From a virus: 64,000 bases of DNA. Under the pieces are notes generated by a model that did not search any database, had not been told where the DNA came from, and saw only the letters and a program-made list of their open reading frames with translations. Both the position numbers and the translations under genes were made by a program. The stretch lies in the IMG/VR virus record IMGVR_UViG_3300025276_000020; one strand, 5' to 3'. Each line of letters begins with the position of its first letter. Within the stretch, counting starts at the first letter, position 1. Of the stretch, positions 9,030-47,300 are shown piece after piece.

Positions 9030-10238
9030 ATGATAGATACAAGCAAGTTCCAGGACGTGATAACAGGCTTAAAAAATAGCGGTAATTACAGAGTCTTTAA
9101 TGACATAATACGTGAGAGAGGTGAATTCCCTCAAGCATTATATTACGGTCCATATAACATTAAGAACATAGTTAATTGGTGTAGTAATGACTATCTGGGC
9201 ATGGGACAACACAAAGTAGTATTAGATGCAATGCACACGGCTTTAGATCAGACTGGTGCAGGTAGTGGCGGTACTAGAAATATTGCAGGTACTAGCCACT
9301 ATCATGTTGCATTAGAGCGTGAACTTGCCGAATTGCACAATAAAGAAAGCGCACTGTTGTATACTAGTGCTTATGTGGCAAACGAGTGGACGTTAATTGC
9401 TCTCAGTAAGATTATTCCAGATATAGAATTTGTGAGCGACAGTAAGAACCACGCAAGTCTTATTCAAGGCATGAAACACAGTGGTGCACCCAAGCACGTA
9501 TTTGAACACAATAACATGGAACAGTTGCGTGAAGTCCTATCTAATATAAAGGGTACTCCTTGCATTGTGTTTGAAAGCGTGTATAGTATGGATGGATATG
9601 TAAGCTTAATCGAAGAGATACTGGATATAGCTGAAGAATATAAAGCTATGACGTATATAGATGAAGTACATGCTGTTGGATTATATGGAAATACTGGCGC
9701 AGGATTCACTGAGTTATTGGGAGTGCAACATAGAGTTGACTTCATCAATGGAACGCTAGGTAAGGCTTTTGGTTGTCAAGGAGGATACATATCTGGCGAT
9801 GCCATTGCTATCGATGCTATACGCAGTATTGCGAGTGGATTCATATTTACAACAAGTCTAAGCCCAGTGATGTGTGCAGGTGCATTGAGTGCTATCAAGT
9901 ATCTTAAGAGCAGTAATGGTGTGGAGCTGAGAGCTATTCACCAAGAACGTGCAAAGAAACTAAAAGACGTACTCAAGGAAAGAGATATAGATGTGCTAGA
10001 GAATGAAACTCATATCGTGCCTGTTATGATAGGAGATGCTGTAAGATGTAAGTCTGTCAGCGATGAACTTATTACACGTTACGATATATATGTACAACCT
10101 ATAAATTATCCGACAGTATCTATGGGAACTGAAAGACTTAGATTTGCGCCTACTCCACTACACACAGATGCTATGATGCTCGATTTAGCTGAAAAACTCA
10201 AAGAAATAATAGGATTTAGAAAGTCAAACTTTTTATAA
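9030..10238 (+). CDS. hemA: 5-aminolevulinate synthase (PLP-dependent, C4 pathway)
   Basis: WCSNDYLGMGQH, GAGSGGTRNI, NHASLIQG, ESVYSMDG, DEVHAVGLYG, GTLGKAFG, FIFTTSL, YVQPINYPTV, ERLRFAP. Confidence 0.95.
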   Translation: MIDTSKFQDVITGLKNSGNYRVFNDIIRERGEFPQALYYGPYNIKNIVNWCSNDYLGMGQHKVVLDAMHTALDQTGAGSGGTRNIAGTSHYHVALERELAELHNKESALLYTSAYVANEWTLIALSKIIPDIEFVSDSKNHASLIQGMKHSGAPKHVFEHNNMEQLREVLSNIKGTPCIVFESVYSMDGYVSLIEEILDIAEEYKAMTYIDEVHAVGLYGNTGAGFTELLGVQHRVDFINGTLGKAFGCQGGYISGDAIAIDAIRSIASGFIFTTSLSPVMCAGALSAIKYLKSSNGVELRAIHQERAKKLKDVLKERDIDVLENETHIVPVMIGDAVRCKSVSDELITRYDIYVQPINYPTVSMGTERLRFAPTPLHTDAMMLDLAEKLKEIIGFRKSNFL

Positions 10239-11715: not shown

Positions 11716-11864
11716 AAGAAAGTAAGAGCGAACTTGACGCAACATACGAGAAAGTCATGGAAGCATTCGATAGGCGAGAACATCGCCAAAAACGAATGAA
11801 CCTGATGATCTTAGGTCTATATGCAGTAATAGTGATTACTATGTTTGTGGGAGCATGGTTATGA
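11712..11864 (+). CDS. 50-aa C-terminally anchored membrane peptide (not in ORF track)
   Basis: MKESKSELDA...LMILGLYAVIVITMFVGAWL*; ATGA overlaps with both hemO and pcyX. Confidence 0.65.
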   Translation: MKESKSELDATYEKVMEAFDRREHRQKRMNLMILGLYAVIVITMFVGAWL

Positions 11865-12544
11865 GTATAGTATGGAAAAGTCTCATCGATCTACAAGATC
11901 ACTTCATAGAGGAGTTTTCTGGCAGTGGAATCGAAGTACAAGAACCTGGTATGGAGCAGTTCAACAAACCTGGTTGGGTAAATAGAGTTTGGACATCCCA
12001 AGACTATCGTAGGGCACACGTTGATGTTGTCGATATGCGTGAAGAGAAGAAGATGTGGATGATGCACGTCTGTGTGTTTCCTCACACCGATAGTGATGCA
12101 CCTATCTATGGATTTGATGTAATAGCTGGTGCTAATAAGATGACTGGCGCATTCCACGATTTCTCTGCTACGACTAATATAGAACACCCAATGATTGATT
12201 GGTTTGGTACGGTCGCATCTGCACTATCATGGAAGAGAGAGCGAGAGTTACCTGAATGGGCTAAAGCTATATTCACTGATCATATGATTGCCGCAGGTAT
12301 GGTTAAAGATCCTATAGAGATTGCACAGATAACTGGCACGGCAATGGAAACACTATCATATTATCTCAAAGAAATCGGTAACTATAACGGATACTCTTCA
12401 CAAGAATTGGGCATAGCCACACAGAATAACTATGCACATTATCAGAAACAGAATCCTCACACACCTAACGTAATGAAGAGCCTAGGCATCGATCCTGATG
12501 ACGTAGACTTATTCATTCAGAAGTGTCTTTTTCCAGAGCTTTAA
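11861..12544 (+). CDS. pcyX: ferredoxin-dependent bilin reductase, PcyX-type
   Basis: WVNRVW, RRAHVDVVD, HVCVFP, PIYGFDVIAG, GAFHDFS, ERELPEWAKAIF, QKQNPHTP, LFP; adjacent to heme oxygenase. Confidence 0.88.
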   Translation: MSIVWKSLIDLQDHFIEEFSGSGIEVQEPGMEQFNKPGWVNRVWTSQDYRRAHVDVVDMREEKKMWMMHVCVFPHTDSDAPIYGFDVIAGANKMTGAFHDFSATTNIEHPMIDWFGTVASALSWKRERELPEWAKAIFTDHMIAAGMVKDPIEIAQITGTAMETLSYYLKEIGNYNGYSSQELGIATQNNYAHYQKQNPHTPNVMKSLGIDPDDVDLFIQKCLFPEL

Positions 12545-12954: not shown

Positions 12955-13914
12955 ATGGAACTACTAACTATCTGGAGCCTTATTGGGTTTCTTTTTGCCG
13001 CTTATGCAGTAATTGCAAATGATTCAGTGCAGACGCTCGGCACTTGGATGGCATCAAACAATGAGCGATTCAACTACAAGACTATGTGGGCAGCCGCAAG
13101 TGCTGTGCTACTAGCAACACTGTGGTATGGTTGGACTGTAAATGGTGGAGACATCAGTTATGGTCGATTGAATAAGATTCCCTGGCAAGAAGTTCAGTGG
13201 TATCATGCCGCCGCACCAGGAATACTCGTACTACTTACAAGACTAGGTGTACCGGTATCAACATCCTTTCTAGTGTTGAGTGCTTTTGCAAGTACTTTTG
13301 TGCTAGAAAAGATGTTGATGAAGAGCATCATGGGTTATGGTATTGCCGCTCTGTTTGCATACGGTGTGTGGTACGTTGTATCACGTACACTTGATGAGGC
13401 AGAACCAGTACAAGAAAAGAACAAAAACTATTGGCGAATAGCGCAGTGGTTTGCAACAGGCGGATTATGGTGGACTTGGTTGTCGCATGATATGGCTAAT
13501 ATTGCTGTGTTCTTACCTCGTGTTGTGCCAGTCGATCTAATGTTCTTGATATCATCTGTTTTCGTGATTGGTCTATTCTTTATGTTTAAAGAACGAGGTG
13601 GTAAGATTCAACAGATTGTACTAGAGAAGCACAACACAAGATATGTCCGTAGTGCAACTCTGATCGATTTGTTCTATTGGTTATGTCTGTACTTCTTCAA
13701 AGAACTTAATGATATTCCTATGTCAACTACGTGGGTCTTTGTTGGTATGCTTGCTGGTCGTGAACTTGCTATCGCAACGTTTACAGGTAAGATGAAAATA
13801 AAATCTGTATTCCCTTTAGTGGGAAGAGACTTTATGAAGATGATGATTGGACTCGGTGCTTCAGTTGCTATCGTCTTAACAATACATTATGTACTGATAC
13901 CAAACGGACTATAA
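12955..13914 (+). CDS. PiT/PHO4-like membrane transporter
   Basis: Multi-TM with duplicated signatures ANDSVQTLG / HDMANIA and GVPVSTS / IPMSTT. Confidence 0.65.
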   Translation: MELLTIWSLIGFLFAAYAVIANDSVQTLGTWMASNNERFNYKTMWAAASAVLLATLWYGWTVNGGDISYGRLNKIPWQEVQWYHAAAPGILVLLTRLGVPVSTSFLVLSAFASTFVLEKMLMKSIMGYGIAALFAYGVWYVVSRTLDEAEPVQEKNKNYWRIAQWFATGGLWWTWLSHDMANIAVFLPRVVPVDLMFLISSVFVIGLFFMFKERGGKIQQIVLEKHNTRYVRSATLIDLFYWLCLYFFKELNDIPMSTTWVFVGMLAGRELAIATFTGKMKIKSVFPLVGRDFMKMMIGLGASVAIVLTIHYVLIPNGL

Positions 13915-13915
13915 A

Positions 13916-14062
13916 ATGATAGATAGGGTCAGGAAAGCATTGACAGGTAAAAGATCACGTGTTATACTGATCCTATCCTTCACATTCTTCTTAGTGAAGG
14001 GTCTCGCATGGTTAGCTCTATGGGCATATGCGATGTATTTTGGTTACACATTTTTTGATTAA
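13916..14062 (+). CDS. 48-aa membrane peptide (not in ORF track)
   Basis: MIDRVRKALTGKRSRVILILSFTFFLVKGLAWLALW...*. Confidence 0.5.
   Translation: MIDRVRKALTGKRSRVILILSFTFFLVKGLAWLALWAYAMYFGYTFFD
13940..13968 (+). promoter_or_regulatory. sigma70-type promoter upstream of tmRNA
   Basis: TTGACA-17nt-TATACT with TG extension. Confidence 0.55.
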
Positions 14063-14066
14063 TGTC

Positions 14067-14104
14067 TTGACAAGTGCGTCAAAATGGTGTAAACTGTATA
14101 AATA
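14067..14104 (+). promoter_or_regulatory. stacked sigma70 and T4 late promoters for tmRNA
   Basis: TTGACA(14067)-17-TAAACT(14090); TATAAATA 14097-14104. Confidence 0.65.
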
Positions 14105-14110
14105 AGACGT

Positions 14111-14402
14111 AGGTTGACAGTTGTTAATCTACAATTTGATTTGTTGAAGCAGATTGATACTGAACAGGACTCGGGTTCGAATCCCGACAGCTCCACCAAA
14201 AGCATACTGAATATGGCTAGTATGTTTTTGATGGGGCTGAACTGGGAATCGACTGGCAGGGTAGAAAAGTGGAGAATCCGGGTACGAGCTCCGTTAACGC
14301 AAGAAACTAAAGTAAACGCAAACGATAATTTTGCTCCTGTAGACTACGCCCTAGCGGCATAGTTGTACGGGGTTCGCCAGTACCTGTCAACAGAAACTGG
14401 CA
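14111..14402 (+). ncRNA. ssrA: circularly permuted (two-piece) tmRNA
   Basis: T-arm and acceptor 3' strand CAGCTCCACCA ending 14198 precede the 5' strand GGGGCTG at 14233 (G3.U wobble); hairpin intervening segment; tag frame 14318-14362 ANDNFAPVDYALAA*; outer ends approximate. Confidence 0.93.
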
Positions 14403-14435
14403 CCTTTTTACGAAACAAACAAAGAAAGAAAACAG

Positions 14436-14798
14436 ATGAAAAACGTAATTTTGGCTACGGCCGCACTAGTAGCCTCAGCATCAGCAGTCGCCGCATTCGA
14501 TGTGACTGACACATTTAGTATTGACAGCGAAGTAAAAACGTGGTATAATACAAGTCAATCAACATGGACTGCACACTACGAAGTTAAACCAACTTACTCA
14601 CCCTCGGCTCTACCAGGTATGGCTGTATATGTGATGAACGATGGCGATCTACGTGATGTAAAGTATGATGGCGTTGAACTTGGAATGGAATACAAAATGG
14701 ATAACTCAATGGTTAGCCCAGTATTGAAAGCCAAGGTAGGATATGATGAAGATTGGAATCGTGGTGACATTTTTGTCGGTGCAACTTTCAACTTCTAA
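14436..14798 (+). CDS. small outer-membrane beta-barrel-like protein
   Basis: Signal peptide; amphipathic strands; C-terminal FVGATFNF. Confidence 0.7.
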   Translation: MKNVILATAALVASASAVAAFDVTDTFSIDSEVKTWYNTSQSTWTAHYEVKPTYSPSALPGMAVYVMNDGDLRDVKYDGVELGMEYKMDNSMVSPVLKAKVGYDEDWNRGDIFVGATFNF

Positions 14799-14807
14799 AG
14801 TATAGGC

Positions 14808-14834
14808 TTGGTGCACCTTAACGCACCAACTTTT
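14808..14834 (+). terminator. probable intrinsic terminator
   Basis: TTGGTGC-8nt-GCACCAA then CTTTT. Confidence 0.55.
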
Positions 14835-14862
14835 AACATTAACTACAACACGGTGAAAAATT

Positions 14863-15120
14863 ATGACAGGTATTATTATCCCCTCAAGCGATCACGACAA
14901 AAAGCGTATCAAAGAATGTATGCAAGAGATAAGTAACTCTTATCTACGACAGGAAGCTGAACGTGAGTTTGTCAAAGAAGCCCTAATCTCTCTAGAAGAC
15001 GATGTAGGCATCCCCAAAAAATATCTAGGTAAAATGGCTCGTATCTATCATAAGCAGAACATGAGCGAATTGCTGTCCGAAATCTGTGAGATCGAAGCTT
15101 TATTGGAAAGTGTTCAATAA
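14863..15120 (+). CDS. dsbA: T4 DsbA-like dsDNA-binding protein
   Basis: EISNSY.R.EAER, KMARIYHKQN motifs; synteny dsbA-33-59-32. Confidence 0.75.
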   Translation: MTGIIIPSSDHDKKRIKECMQEISNSYLRQEAEREFVKEALISLEDDVGIPKKYLGKMARIYHKQNMSELLSEICEIEALLESVQ

Positions 15121-15124
15121 ACAC

Positions 15125-15153
15125 TTGACACGAGCCCAATTCGATGTTATACT
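15125..15153 (+). promoter_or_regulatory. sigma70-type promoter
   Basis: TTGACA-17nt-TATACT with TG extension. Confidence 0.7.
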
Positions 15154-15184
15154 ATACAAGTATAAACAATAGAGGAGTATCTTA

Positions 15185-15394
15185 ATGAATCATATCAAGA
15201 CATATTTCAAAGAAGGCACCGATGGTGCGAGAGCAGAAGTCTTCTTAGAAGAAGGGGTCTACTGTATTCGATATTACATGGGTATTGGAGATACTGAGTT
15301 TTTCCGTAGAGAGGAGTTTGAAGACAAGTCTAGGCAATATGTCGAAGATGCGGCTGAGAATTGGGCTTTAGGAATTAAGGTACTAAATGGCTAG
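15185..15394 (+). CDS. hypothetical phage protein
   Basis: GAGGAG SD; C-terminal YVEDAAENWALG. Confidence 0.7.
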   Translation: MNHIKTYFKEGTDGARAEVFLEEGVYCIRYYMGIGDTEFFRREEFEDKSRQYVEDAAENWALGIKVLNG

Positions 15395-15575
15395 AGTTAC
15401 ATATAACGAGCCAACACTCTATAACGTTGATATAGACCCTAAAGAAGGCAAAGTAATCTTAGGTGGTGAAGAGTATATTATTAATAATAAACGTGAAGCA
15501 AGCGTTTTTAAAACAGCCTATTTACTGGGCAGGGAGCATAAAAAATCGCAAATACTAAAGACATTGGGCTTATAG
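15387..15575 (+). CDS. hypothetical protein
   Basis: Overlaps the upstream stop; operon context. Confidence 0.6.
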   Translation: MARVTYNEPTLYNVDIDPKEGKVILGGEEYIINNKREASVFKTAYLLGREHKKSQILKTLGL

Positions 15576-15598
15576 CACAACTAAATTCTGAAACGATA

Positions 15599-15793
15599 AT
15601 GAAAGAAATTTCAGCAAATATCGCTAAGGGTGTACCATACATTGATGCAGTGATTGTATACGCAGAATCGTATGGACTGGAAGTAGAGGTAGTTGGAGAG
15701 ATCATTCGAAGATCACCTGTACTTAAGGCAAAGATTTATAGAGAAGCAGAAGAACTAAATATGGTAGAGAAGTTAACAAGGCTGCCAGTGTGA
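15599..15793 (+). CDS. 33: late transcription coactivator gp33
   Basis: YIDAVIVYAE...LKAKIYREAEELN...LP; upstream of gp59; the frame stays open 5' of 15599, so the start may be earlier. Confidence 0.85.
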   Translation: MKEISANIAKGVPYIDAVIVYAESYGLEVEVVGEIIRRSPVLKAKIYREAEELNMVEKLTRLPV

Positions 15794-16395
15794 CAGACCG
15801 ATCAATGTACTCAACTAGAGAGGCGTTTGAACTCTATAGCTACTACATTGCTCTGAAGAAGCACTTTACCACTTCGTATGATTTTCACAAATATGGTGGT
15901 AAGATGAGGTTGTCTGTAGATAGTTTTGAACGCAGAAAAGATAAGTTCTTCTTCTATAAGTTGGGAAAGCGTAAGGACTCTAAAGAGTTTCTACTCGCTA
16001 ATGTGATTGATAATCCAGAAATATGGATTGGCAATTTGATAGATAACAAGACCGCTGATGAGATATTCAGAGAGTGGTCAAAGAGACAACAGTCTTTGGG
16101 ATACGTGTTTGGCAATGAGCTAGATGAATTGAACGAAGACTTTAACTCTAACTTTATTGTTGAAGACGGACAGTACTCTAGGGTATTACAACTCTACAAC
16201 ATGAAGCGACTGAGCATCGAAACTCTAGTCATCTTAGATGATCTGACAGGATGCTTTAAATATTGGGATAAGAATATCAACGATACCATCGTTTATCCTA
16301 ATATAAATAAGATTGTTAAGAAATATCGACCTTTTTTAAATTATGATAAAGTGAAAATGAAGAAAATATGTCTTGACAAATACACCGCGGTCTAG
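15790..16395 (+). CDS. 59: helicase loader gp59
   Basis: YIALKKHFTTSYDFHKYGGK, RKDKFFF.KL, SIETLVILD, KY.PF. Confidence 0.92.
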   Translation: MTDRSMYSTREAFELYSYYIALKKHFTTSYDFHKYGGKMRLSVDSFERRKDKFFFYKLGKRKDSKEFLLANVIDNPEIWIGNLIDNKTADEIFREWSKRQQSLGYVFGNELDELNEDFNSNFIVEDGQYSRVLQLYNMKRLSIETLVILDDLTGCFKYWDKNINDTIVYPNINKIVKKYRPFLNYDKVKMKKICLDKYTAV

Positions 16396-16401
16396 TATAA
16401 T
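16302..16401 (+). promoter_or_regulatory. late and sigma70 promoters for gene 32
   Basis: TATAAATA 16302-16309; TTGACA(16373)-17-TATAAT(16396). Confidence 0.75.
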
Positions 16402-16468
16402 AGACCAATACAACGATATACATCGTAACATAAACCGCTATATATAGCATAATACAGGAAATACTAAT

Positions 16469-17407
16469 ATGACAACATCATTCTCTGCCTTAAAGAAGGC
16501 ACGTACTTCATCTTTCGATAAACTGAATTCTCAGTTACAGAAGATGGGATCACCCAATAACAACAAAGGCGATGATCGCTTCTGGAAACCAGAAGTAGAC
16601 AAAGCTGGCAATGGTTATGCCGTGATTCGCTTTTTACCAGCACCGTCAGGTGAAGATATGCCATTCGTTCGTGCGTGGGACCATGGCTTTCAAGGACCAG
16701 GTGGTTGGTACATTGAAAACTCTCTTACAACTTTAGGTCAAGACGATCCAGTCTCTGAGTACAACTCAAAGCTTTGGAACTCTGGTCATGACGAAGATAA
16801 AGAAACTGCTCGTAAGCAGAAGCGCAGGTTATCATACACTGCTAACATCTATATCGTGAAGGATAGTGCTAACCCATCACGTGAAGGTCAAGTTTATCTT
16901 TATAAGTTTGGTAAGAAAATCTTCGACAAGCTGAACGATGCAATGAATCCTCAGTTTCAAGACGAAGATCCGATCAACCCATTTGACTTTTGGGAAGGTG
17001 CAGATTTCAAATTGAAGATCCGTCAAGTAGAAGGCTATCGTAACTACGATAAGTCTGAGTTTGACTCGATTTCTCCTATCAGTGATTCATCTGGTACAGC
17101 GTTATCAGACGAAGCCATGGAAGAAAATTGGAATAAGCAACATTCTCTAGCAGATATTGTCGATCCTAAAAACTTCAAGTCTTATAATGAACTGAAAGCT
17201 AAATTGTATAAGGTTCTAGGTCTTGATGGCAGTAAACACGCACCCACAACAACTGCTGAGGACGATAGTACGGGTATGAACTTTGCTCCTAACTTTAAAG
17301 AGCGTGAAGCTCCTGAAGTGAGCGAGGCTTCATCCCCAACTCTTGCGAGTGACGACGGAGACGGAGAGTCTCTAGATTTCTTCAAGAGTCTAGCTGAAGA
17401 TAGTTAA
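16469..17407 (+). CDS. 32: single-stranded DNA-binding protein gp32
   Basis: DDRFWKP, GNGYAVIRFLPAP, WYIENSLTT, FGKKIFDK, NPFDFWEGADFKLK, NYDKSEF; acidic tail. Confidence 0.97.
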   Translation: MTTSFSALKKARTSSFDKLNSQLQKMGSPNNNKGDDRFWKPEVDKAGNGYAVIRFLPAPSGEDMPFVRAWDHGFQGPGGWYIENSLTTLGQDDPVSEYNSKLWNSGHDEDKETARKQKRRLSYTANIYIVKDSANPSREGQVYLYKFGKKIFDKLNDAMNPQFQDEDPINPFDFWEGADFKLKIRQVEGYRNYDKSEFDSISPISDSSGTALSDEAMEENWNKQHSLADIVDPKNFKSYNELKAKLYKVLGLDGSKHAPTTTAEDDSTGMNFAPNFKEREAPEVSEASSPTLASDDGDGESLDFFKSLAEDS

Positions 17408-44320: not shown

Positions 44321-47300
44321 ATGACCATAAAATTTAGCGGATTAGATGCGATTACGATACCAGCAAATGCTGATCTCTTTGCCTTGTCCGATACTTCAGA
44401 AACAGCAACTAAGAAGATTACGTTTGCTAATCTTAAAACGTCTATCATCGATGCTAGTACGTTCTCAGCCTCTGGTCCTAATATACCTCTAATCATCACT
44501 GGATTAAATGCTTACGATGCTGGTACGGGTAACTCACTTAAAGCTTCACAGTTATACTCTGGTGGTGCATATAGAGATGCTTCATACTTCTTAACATACG
44601 CTAACATTGCTGGAACACCTACTGTACCATCAGATGTAAAAGATTTAACCAACACTACCGGATACGTAAGATTTCAAGGAGCTGTAGCAAACTCGGGCAA
44701 TGGACTTGTTTGGAGTGGCGCAGGGGCTAATAATACTGGTAACTCATCAACGATATCTACTAGTAATATACCAGAAGGTACAAATCAATATTACACTCTT
44801 GCTAGAGGAGCTGAAGCTGTAGTAGCTAATTTCGGCACACAGTTCAATATCTATAACAGCACTTTTGACAAAGGTGATGTGAGAGATAGTCTCGATGCAG
44901 AGGCAGCAACATTCATAAACACTCAAGTCACTGACGGACAGAATCAATCTAAGACTTTGCGCTTTGCCGCTGGTAGCTATGCTAAGAAAGCCAACTACGC
45001 TAAAGATCAAGTTCTAAGACTTTACGGAGCATCTACACTGTTTGCCTCTGACGCAATAGCAACATCATTCTCTGTTACTGTTACAGGCTTTGCAACAACT
45101 AGCGGCACTTCTAAGCCTGGCACAGGCGGTGTGATCAGCTATAGTTATAAGATTGCAGAGTTTGATGTAGTCACTGGAGAAATATCAGCGGCTTCTGCGG
45201 CGATTGTTAAGCCTATAGGAGTTCCAACAACTTCTGGAGCAAGTACAGTTGCTGGAGCATTCAATGCATCAGTGTTTAACAAATTATTATTCTCTAGTGT
45301 ACCTGCTGATAAAGGTGTACTCGTATACAGACAGATAGCGTCTGGTGGATACGAACTCACAGCAGTTCTTGGAAGAAAAGAAATGGACGCTGGATATTGG
45401 ATAGACTATCAAGCATTCGATTTCACAGCGTGGTCTGGAAAAGATGTTGTCACAAACACATATACTAGCATTACTCATTTCCCACTAACACCTCCTAGCA
45501 CTTCTAGAAGAGGTTGGGTAGACAAAACTATAACGTCTGTAGTAGATAACGGTGGAACATTCGATGTTATCGTAGACGATTTTGTATTCGTCAATACAGG
45601 CAATACCGTTCAAGTGTCACATAATGATACACAAATTATACAATCAGCTATCAACTCAAACGCCGCTGTCGGTAAAAAGAGTATCGTGCTTAACGCAAAA
45701 ACTTATAACTCTTCACAAATATCTATGCCTAATAACTTTGGACTAGTGGGTACATCATACATCACTAAGCTTAAGAAGTTAGCTTGGTCAGGAGGAGAAG
45801 CTGGTGCGGTAAACGCTAAGTTCATCAGATCAGCGGCAGCAACTGGAGCTACTTCACTGTCTATAGTGGGATTAGATATCGAAGGTAATGCTCCTAATCA
45901 ATTTTTATTCCCAGATGATACTACAAAAAACGCTAACTATCTCTTAGATTTTGGAATTAACTGTAGCTCACTATTATTAGACAGAGTTCGTATTAATAAT
46001 GCAGTAGCTGGTGGAGTCTGGGCAACATCACCTATTGAGATGAAGATGAATACCAGTGAGATCATAAACAGTGGGACATCAGATAGATACAGCTATTCTC
46101 CTCTAGTTGCTGACTTCGGTCAAGACACTATGATCGTGGGTAATAGATTTCAGAACTACACAAACTATCTCGATACTTCTGTAACCAATAAAGGTATTGT
46201 TGCCAACAACGTCATCAATAACTGTGGTAGTGGATTGTTTGTTTACGGATCAGTATTCTTTATATCATCGCCCAATGTTTTAATGGGACCAGCACAAGAG
46301 TTCTTACCAACTCCAGATATCCTCAACTCAGAGTACGACTTGATTAACATCGATCTAAGCTCTGCGGCAGGATCAAACTCTGTATACAATAGTCCTATAC
46401 ACGTCTATCAAGAAGACGGCGCAATATTTGACCTGTCTACAACGGCAGGATCAATAGTGAATGTAGAATATAGAGCATTCTATCTATCGAAGACTGCCGG
46501 AGGTGTTGAAGAGATTTACGGCACTACAACAAATTCAGGTTCGTTCGTTATCGGTAAGAGATACACAATTCTTACTGAAGGAAACACAACTCAGGCTAAC
46601 TGGAATAAAGCCGCAGGCACAGGTGGTTCTAATGGCACCACAACGACAGGAATACCTTTGCCAGCAAGAACTTACTCTGTAGGAGATGATTTCATAGCGG
46701 CTACAGTAGGCACAGGTGGATCAGGTATGGGTACAGCAACTAGTGGCGGTGTTGATACTATAGTAATCAACGATAGACCAGGCGATGCAACTAGAGCTAA
46801 CGGAGAATTTGCCTTTCAGATTCCATCAGCAACGGTGCAAGCAATTAAAACAGCAAATGGAGCATACTCGTACTCTACACTGAAAGCGGCTAACACTCTA
46901 CATGTAGGAATAGGTTGGACAGCATCTCAGAGAACAGAAGTTGCCGCCGGCACTATAAGTACTGCTGCCGGGGCTTGGTTTGTCGATTCTAATAATGGGG
47001 TAAACAACAACCCTCTAACAACAAGTAACGACGGGACTAGTCCAACATACAGAATTAGTGTTACGAATCTTAAGTACCTAGCTATAGGACAGAAGGTTAA
47101 ATTCAAAGATCATACAGGTTTCGCTAATCCTGGAGGTATAACAACAGGAACAGTAAAAACAATAACTACCAATAGCGCAGGTATTTCGGTTATAGAAATT
47201 CAATTCGTGGGTGCCGGTGGTGGAGAAGTCAACTCAGCATCTTTGAGTGCGGGTTTAGTTCCAAGCACAGCAGGCGGAACAATAAATATAATCGATACCT

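Follow-up and report, generated by a model that had tools for sequence, protein, structure and literature searches.

Does a circularly permuted tmRNA gene found in a phage genome work for the phage, or is it host DNA that arrived there by accident? The question is raised by positions 14,111 to 14,402 of IMG/VR record IMGVR_UViG_3300025276_000020, a viral sequence of 64,000 nucleotides (hereafter, the window), which a first-pass annotation based on the letters alone had read as a phage-encoded, circularly permuted two-piece tmRNA of the alpha type. ARAGORN and Infernal searches with the Rfam alpha_tmRNA model, the checks suggested there, were both positive and bore this core reading out. ARAGORN called a permuted tmRNA at 14106–14453 with the tag ANDNFAPVDYALAA, the sole RNA gene found in the 64-kb window. 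Two Rfam models matched over their full length, i.e., RF04321 (tmRNA_permuted; 14138–14362, model positions 1–213, 99.2 bits vs a gathering score of 47) and RF01849 (alpha_tmRNA; 14083–14404, 83.4 bits vs a gathering score of 50), and the Rfam scan of the window gave no other match above threshold. RF01849 was the top model of its clan, the remaining clan models scoring lower. Taken together, ARAGORN and the two models place the gene at about 14109–14404. We consider it to be, with a probability of roughly 0.85, a functional, circularly permuted ssrA gene of the phage.

Anatomy and genomic setting of the permuted gene

The gene order in the window is permuted: the tRNA-like 3′ half with its CCA comes first, a spacer next, and the 5′ half with the tag frame last. 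The promoters and RNA elements are listed below.

14067–14095 (+): sigma-70-type early promoter, TTGACA-17-TAAACT (10/12 consensus matches)
14097–14104 (+): T4-type late promoter box TATAAATA, a few bases 5′ of the RNA start (read from the sequence)
14109–14132 (+): 5′ hairpin of the acceptor-piece transcript, 10 bp, loop AGUU (fold −9.8 kcal/mol, z = −4.6)
14113–14120 (+): GUUGACAG inside the 5′ hairpin, complementary to the 3′ loop
14138–14198 (+): acceptor piece body, with P2 strand, T arm, acceptor 3′ strand, discriminator and CCA (Rfam alignment)
14171–14187 (+): T arm, loop UUCGAAU
14188–14194 (+): acceptor 3′ strand, CAGCUCC
14195 (+): discriminator A
14196–14198 (+): encoded CCA
14199–14232 (+): intervening segment (spacer), 34 nt (hairpin −14.2 kcal/mol, z = −3.2)
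14199–14209 with 14218–14228 (+): closing helix of the spacer, loop 14210–14217
14229–14232 (+): leader UGAU ahead of G1
14233–14404 (+): coding piece, with acceptor 5′ strand, D-loop analogue, P2 strand, PK1 region, tag frame and 3′ pseudoknot
14233–14239 (+): acceptor 5′ strand, GGGGCUG, with G3.U
14318–14362 (+): tag frame, with resume codon GCA, ANDNFAPVDYALAA and stop TAG (ARAGORN)
14370–14401 (+): alpha-type 3′ terminal pseudoknot and hairpin
14370–14373 with 14382–14385 (+): pseudoknot pairing, GGGU with ACCU
14376–14381 with 14396–14401 (+): terminal hairpin, GCCAGU/ACUGGC (hairpin z = −2.1)
14382–14395 (+): 14-nt loop of the terminal hairpin, containing CUGUCAAC (14384–14391)
14402–14409 (+): U-rich tail ACCUUUUU after the terminal hairpin (read from the sequence)

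Inspection of the sequence confirmed the previously described order, in which the T arm, acceptor 3′ strand and CCA (to 14198) precede GGGGCUG (14233), as well as the 34-nt hairpin segment between them, the G3.U pair and the tag. None of 200 shuffles equalled the stability of the spacer hairpin. The terminal hairpin with its U-rich tail is likely an intrinsic terminator; it was omitted by a simple terminator scan owing to its loop of >8 nt. When the precursor and the two pieces were folded by plain minimum free energy, the acceptor stem and the hairpins were recovered. The T arm was not recovered in these folds, which counts against a working ssrA.

The body of the RNA is alpha-type, given that RF01849 fits best, the alpha pseudoknot is present, and the D-loop analogue is GAACUGGGAAUCGAC. 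Bacterial alpha tmRNAs (RF01849) share with it the gene order, G3.U, an ANDN... tag, P2, a 5′ hairpin right after the promoter, and a 3′ pseudoknot with a conserved ..CAACAGAA loop, which in the window reads ACCUGUCAACAGAA. They differ in having a short, tetraloop-capped 5′ hairpin where that of the window is longer, GGCAAC instead of GUCAAC in the 3′ loop, and the T-loop GGCRGUA. Two of the comparisons with bacterial genes count against the reading as a working ssrA: the T-loop of the window is UUCGAAU, and bacterial alpha tmRNAs score far higher with both models (225–297 bits for RF01849 and 118–170 for RF04321). Because of its T-loop, the gene is probably best filed as an alpha-derived phage variant rather than as a typical alpha member.

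Both the sigma-70 and the T4 late promoter reported upstream of the gene were confirmed, and the pair is conserved in relatives. TTGACA and a −10 box were detected at the same spot in L001, L002, L128, L131 and L137, and the late box TATAAATA is kept in L001, L123, L128, L131, L137 and the Methylophilales (OM43) phage Melnitz, and reads GATAAATA in L002 and L004. The tmRNA of the window thus appears to be tied into both early and late phage transcription. Downstream of it lies a T4-like block, dsbA-gp33-gp59-gp32, that spans 14863–17407 (+).

14863–15120 (+): dsbA (PF11126, 32.5 bits)
15599–15793 (+): gp33 (PF16805, 34.2 bits)
15790–16395 (+): gp59, helicase loader (PHROGs, 3.8e-50)
16469–17407 (+): gp32, single-strand DNA-binding protein (PHROGs, 5.9e-117)

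The large structural genes lie beyond this replication/transcription block. The GC content of the window is even (38–43%), and the base composition of the tmRNA is that of the phage. The gp32 protein is ~55% identical to those of cyanophages and of Melnitz, and no close relative of the window was found in the phage collection searched. Along with the T4-type neighbors, these observations point to an uncultured marine T4-like myovirus as the source; nothing supports a link to Caulobacter, in which complementation had been proposed.

Some other genes of the window deserve mention. An intact 5-aminolevulinate synthase gene (9030–10238; TIGR01821, 556.8 bits vs a cut-off of 338.55) hints at an alphaproteobacterial connection, without proving it, and a ferredoxin-dependent bilin reductase-like gene (11855–12544) follows downstream. 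Directly 3′ of the tmRNA, 14436–14798 encodes a 120-aa protein with a signal-peptide-like start that has no family match and shares only ~53% identity with its counterparts in relatives; a perfect TTGACA-17-TATAAT match (14521–14549) falls within its coding sequence.

The absence of smpB from the window, also reported previously, was confirmed by searches with two SmpB proteins from Alphaproteobacteria (tblastn and hmmsearch), which found nothing credible there. A 10.8-bit match to the SmpB profile was dismissed, as it falls on the DsbA gene (Pfam, Phage_DsbA). An SmpB gene is likewise absent from the complete genomes of Melnitz and the Pelagibacter phage HTVC008M and from three large related contigs. 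With no SmpB encoded, the RNA must rely on that of the host.

Covariation, conservation and origin

The tRNA-like region was aligned for 13 phage and 9 bacterial genes, with the structure (two P2 segments, T stem, acceptor stem and spacer closing helix) fixed in advance. Across these 22 sequences, 93.3% of the cells were paired, compared with 71.7% in shuffles (0/500 as high) and 36–45% with slid partners; the covariation score was 0.527 vs 0.164, and both sides had changed at 21 of the 29 pairs. The T stem and the acceptor stem were 100% paired with compensatory changes, and G3.U was present in all 22. In the spacer closing helix, which begins directly after CCA and stops four bases 5′ of G1, both sides had changed at 11/11 pairs across the relatives. 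This helix holds 9–13 bp despite divergent phage sequences and spacer lengths of 32–142 nt, and appears to be the least expected structural part of the gene. Its covariation and the conserved UGAU leader suggest that the transcript matures into two pieces. The four-base pairing of the 3′ pseudoknot was detected in 38/38 alpha-type tmRNAs with compensatory types (CGGU/ACCG, GGGU/ACCU, CGGC/GCCG, CCGU/ACGG and GAGU/ACUU); all 26 distinct combinations had it, whereas 2000 shuffles averaged 9.9 and never exceeded 19.

In about a dozen independent virome and metagenome contigs from different samples, the gene is located at the same place. Where the flank suffices, the tmRNA comes after a 319-aa membrane protein and then a 48-aa frame, and is itself followed by the 120-aa exported protein, dsbA, gp33, gp59 and gp32. 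A 25-mer covering T arm, acceptor strand and CCA was found in six IMG/VR and seven metagenome contigs, a 17-mer from the 3′ loop in 16 viral contigs, and the same tag, ANDNFAPVDYALAA, in about a dozen contigs. Variants of the tag are in frame and conservative (ANDDFAPVDYALAA in L128 and ANDNYVPVDYALAA in Melnitz). A search of the literature for the tag peptides found nothing. The tmRNA core shares 98.9% identity with its L004 counterpart and the coding piece 100%, whereas DNA identity is 65–86% in the flanking genes and 71% in the stretch with the promoter and 5′ hairpin. The identity of the core and coding piece against that of the flanking genes points to strong purifying selection on the mature RNA.

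These data bear on whether the region is merely a passenger, i.e., chance host DNA, the remnant of an integration site or an assembly chimera. tmRNA genes do commonly serve as integration sites (PMC9004378), which lends that explanation some plausibility. The gene, however, is syntenic across about a dozen contigs that come from different samples, is preceded by phage promoters of its own, and matches the phage in base composition. The exact 25-mer had no match in bacteria (one genome per species; 185,579 species), and BLAST of the gene against 151 alphaproteobacterial genomes returned just one weak 55-nt match, so the gene is not a recent host capture or a chimera. A degenerate search for the permuted pattern returned only beta-type tmRNAs and tandem tRNAs, and the nearest bacterial tmRNAs were those of genomes G087 (1.7 Mb, locus GC of 31%) and G047 (1.2 Mb). 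One genome of the sample, G049, is unpublished and was used in a tally alone; none of the conclusions depends on it. A passenger origin is thus extremely improbable and appears refuted for practical purposes by synteny and conservation, which also exclude the chimeric host insert that the first-pass annotation had raised against its own reading.

Possible module exchange and the putative clasp

The tRNA-like part of the gene has a mixed distribution among relatives. The T stem and acceptor of the window are identical to those of bacterial L089 (tag ANDNFAPVAVAA), and sister genes carry the T-loop GGCAGUA (L131 and L137, with the same tag as the window) or UGCGAAU (L128). The idea that the canonical T-loop was derived by recombination from a beta-type gene was dropped, as L128, L131 and L137 show both loop types on one body. 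The same T arm, acceptor and CCA, with a similar spacer base, are also found on other bodies (window:14168–14239 vs L003:1764–1897, L005 and L121:3354–3478). Of these, L003 and L005 have the tag ANANDYALAA and beta_tmRNA as the best model (88.5 bits), and L121 has a third body type with the tag AKANYSLAA (read by eye). The relative L080 is best fitted by beta_tmRNA (88.5 bits). This shared tRNA-like cassette suggests either exchange of modules from phage to phage or tuning to one host.

A second sign comes from L131, in which the downstream genes share ~88% DNA identity with the window (65–82% for L004) and the tmRNA core just 76%. At both L131:1754–2147 and L137:13119–13512, the ~88% downstream identity is accompanied by the T-loop GGCAGUA, the lack of a 5′ hairpin, and an 82-nt spacer, whereas contigs more distant than these two bear a tmRNA nearly identical to that of the window. 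The mix of T-loops, the cassette on three bodies, and the mismatch between flank and core in L131 together suggest allelic or modular exchange at the tmRNA locus.

The spacers of other relatives are longer, with 111 nt for the tmRNA at L123:5205–5386 and 142 nt for that of Melnitz (L083:2278–2489). In both, a small open frame comes after a Shine-Dalgarno-like GGAGAAG; the frame starts MIKWI... in L123 and MFKWL... in Melnitz and has a common ..AD..PKYL.G near its end; in the shared stretch the two frames differ by synonymous third-base changes. The 34-nt spacer of the window is the empty form.

The complementarity previously noticed between the 5′ hairpin and the 3′ loop is real. GUUGACAG (14113–14120) is the exact complement of CUGUCAAC (14384–14391), and a Watson-Crick run of 8 bp was attained in only 0.4% of shuffles (P about 0.004). 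The proposal that it clasps the two pieces, as a third contact or as a switch between hairpin and duplex, did not hold as a feature of the family, and a functional clasp seems unlikely to us. In its favor, genes of the L001 type form 9 bp via the other strand of the hairpin (0/500 shuffles), L123 forms 6 bp, and the predicted duplex is at −12.3 kcal/mol compared with −9.8 for the hairpin. That duplex is barely stronger than the hairpin that must open, however, and an 8-bp helix is hard to form in a 14-nt hairpin loop, of which bases 14382–14385, including two of the eight clasp bases, are already occupied by the pseudoknot. No excess over chance was found in 33 bacterial alpha tmRNAs, HTVC008M or Melnitz, and genes of the L002 type have just 5 Watson-Crick bp (P = 0.15). 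L128, L131 and L137 lack the 5′ hairpin, yet have an identical 3′ loop and a tag that is identical or almost so; the loop is also retained in L129 and L134, and in L130 and L132 with a different T arm. The hairpin stretch changes about as fast as the neutral-looking flanks (71–87% identity), and the shift of GUUGA to the opposite hairpin strand in L001 is explained by compensatory change within the G.U-rich stem. The 5′ hairpins of bacteria are short stems with GCAA or UUCG tetraloops, the signature of a self-contained hairpin. The putative clasp is dispensable.

The 5′ hairpin itself has its stem kept with changes in L001, L002 and L123, is missing in L128, L131, L137 and Melnitz, and has a tetraloop hairpin as its counterpart at the corresponding position of bacterial alpha tmRNAs. 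In many bacterial alpha tmRNAs (L095, L098, L101, L104, L105, L109, L110 and L118) the 5′ hairpin GUCGGGCAACCGAC contains GGGCAAC; the 3′ pseudoknot loop ..CGGGCAACAGAA conserves this motif too, in the same sense and not complementary. It is conceivable, though rather doubtful, that marine T4-like phages have a module-swapping tmRNA lineage of their own, in which the subclade of the window gained a hairpin with 8–9 bp to the invariant 3′ loop, maybe as a clasp or switch.

Possible roles in infection and relation to known phage tmRNAs

For a working phage ssrA, we propose the following route, in which the steps of processing, alanylation, delivery and tagging are modeled on what is known of tmRNA and of the two-piece tmRNA reportedly described by Keiler et al. 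in 2000 in Caulobacter, an alphaproteobacterium. A single transcript would start just after the overlapping early and late promoters and end at the terminal hairpin and U tail. Folding on the stem-closed spacer would bring the encoded CCA end and the GGGGCUG start together, and the tRNA-processing enzymes of the host, with RNase P acting at G14233 and 3′ trimming to CCA14198, would remove the 34-nt spacer. The products would be an acceptor piece (about 14109–14198) and a coding piece (14233 to about 14404), base-paired to each other in the acceptor stem (7 bp) and the P2 helices. Host AlaRS would alanylate the RNA through G3.U, and host SmpB and EF-Tu would deliver it to stalled ribosomes, assuming compatibility with the SmpB and AlaRS of the host. 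Translation would then restart on GCA and append ANDNFAPVDYALAA, a presumed ClpXP-type degradation tag.

During T4-like infection, host mRNA is destroyed and host transcription is stopped, so non-stop messages and stalled ribosomes should rise. With host ssrA transcription also off, the tmRNA of the host would no longer be renewed, and the phage copy would supply extra tmRNA throughout infection, freeing ribosomes and recycling truncated proteins. This is the likely benefit to the phage.

Such housekeeping may not be the whole role. The gene could serve counter-defence or retargeting more than housekeeping, either by rescue of ribosomes stalled by host abortive-infection nucleases (mRNA interferases and anticodon nucleases) or by proteolysis that is faster via the phage-specific DYALAA tag than via that of the host. 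DYALAA or EYALAA ends recur on different phage bodies (ANANDYALAA, ANDSEYALAA, ANFNEYALAA and ANDNYVPVDYALAA), the nearest bacterial tags end with AVAA (ANDNFAPVAVAA in L089 and L114), an early promoter suits an early need, and the idea of selective tagging has been raised (PMC9004378). The tag end, however, is a generic ClpX signal, the locus has no associated defence gene or toxin, and this role is compatible with plain boosting of capacity, from which the evidence does not separate it; we regard it as improbable. Far less probable is a decoy that titrates host SmpB and so blocks host trans-translation. The phage has no SmpB of its own, and there is a precedent in the TLD-only RNA of mycobacteriophage DS6A, for which such a role was proposed (cited in PMC4131195). 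In the window, the whole mRNA-like part is present with intact resume codon, stop and pseudoknots, and variants of the tag are conservative and preserve the frame; as no other part is as well conserved as the tag-coding one (100% to L004), a decoy is very unlikely.

Thus the reading as a working ssrA is preferred, and for such a gene there are precedents. The earlier statement that the known phage tmRNAs are one-piece fits the state of about 2014, when one-piece tmRNAs were described in mycobacteriophages (Bxz1 group) and Bacillus phage G (PMC4131195). Those are likewise phage ssrA genes without smpB that presumably use host partner proteins, but they have the standard gene order and a single mature RNA, and belong to unrelated phages and hosts. 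The statement is outdated by the HTVC008M gene and by the two-piece ssrA of Melnitz, reported to follow an early promoter and to lie directly 5′ of the late-transcription coactivator gene (Buchholz et al. 2022; PMC9004378). In 18,146 phage genomes, the same study counted 53 two-piece tmRNAs, of which 50 were marine or aquatic, and it found a permuted tmRNA in 17/47 Melnitz-like contigs, and a tmRNA database paper of 2025 lists 79 phage sequences. A blastn search of the window tmRNA against INPHARED phages gave no match at 1e-5, so sequence similarity alone overlooks known relatives.

We confirmed both precedents. The Melnitz gene (MZ577097; annotated SsrA 45984–46436, RF04321 113.4 bits) is, as in the window, a permuted two-piece gene of a marine T4-like myovirus just upstream of gp33-gp59-gp32, with a TTGACA box and TATAAATA in front, an alpha-type 3′ pseudoknot, no smpB, and a tag that agrees with that of the window at 12/14 residues. 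It differs in its T-loop (GGCAGUA), the lack of a 5′ hairpin, and the 142-nt spacer with a small open frame. Melnitz also has a glutamine riboswitch (RF01739, 52.8 bits; L083:2643–2691) just 3′ of the terminal hairpin of the tmRNA, outside the gene; none was detected at 13700–14900 of the window at E up to 10. The HTVC008M gene (KC465899; 145161–145370, 90.6 bits) lies ~2 kb before gp59. It shares with the window the permuted order, a stem-closed spacer, the GGGU/ACCU pseudoknot and the AACAGAA loop, and differs in its shorter tag (ANFNEYALAA), T-loop (UGCAAUA) and acceptor (GGGGGUG).

Given that Melnitz and HTVC008M already carry such genes, that of the window adds one more example to a known kind, i.e., a functional-looking, ordinary member of a published marine-phage class with a few lineage-specific details. 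By itself it opens no new question, since the phenomenon is already published. The newer points are modest: the combination of an alpha-type body with a canonical T-loop, signs of tRNA-like module exchange, and a covarying stem that closes the spacer. What the window adds is a clean, strongly selected example of the two-piece tmRNAs that are apparently common in T4-like phages of the ocean, which infect streamlined heterotrophs. Constraint falls on the mature pieces, tag, terminal pseudoknot and spacer-closing stem, and the spacer apex and the 5′ hairpin are free to vary. This map of constraint is useful for annotation and for designing experiments on why lytic phages invest in ribosome rescue.
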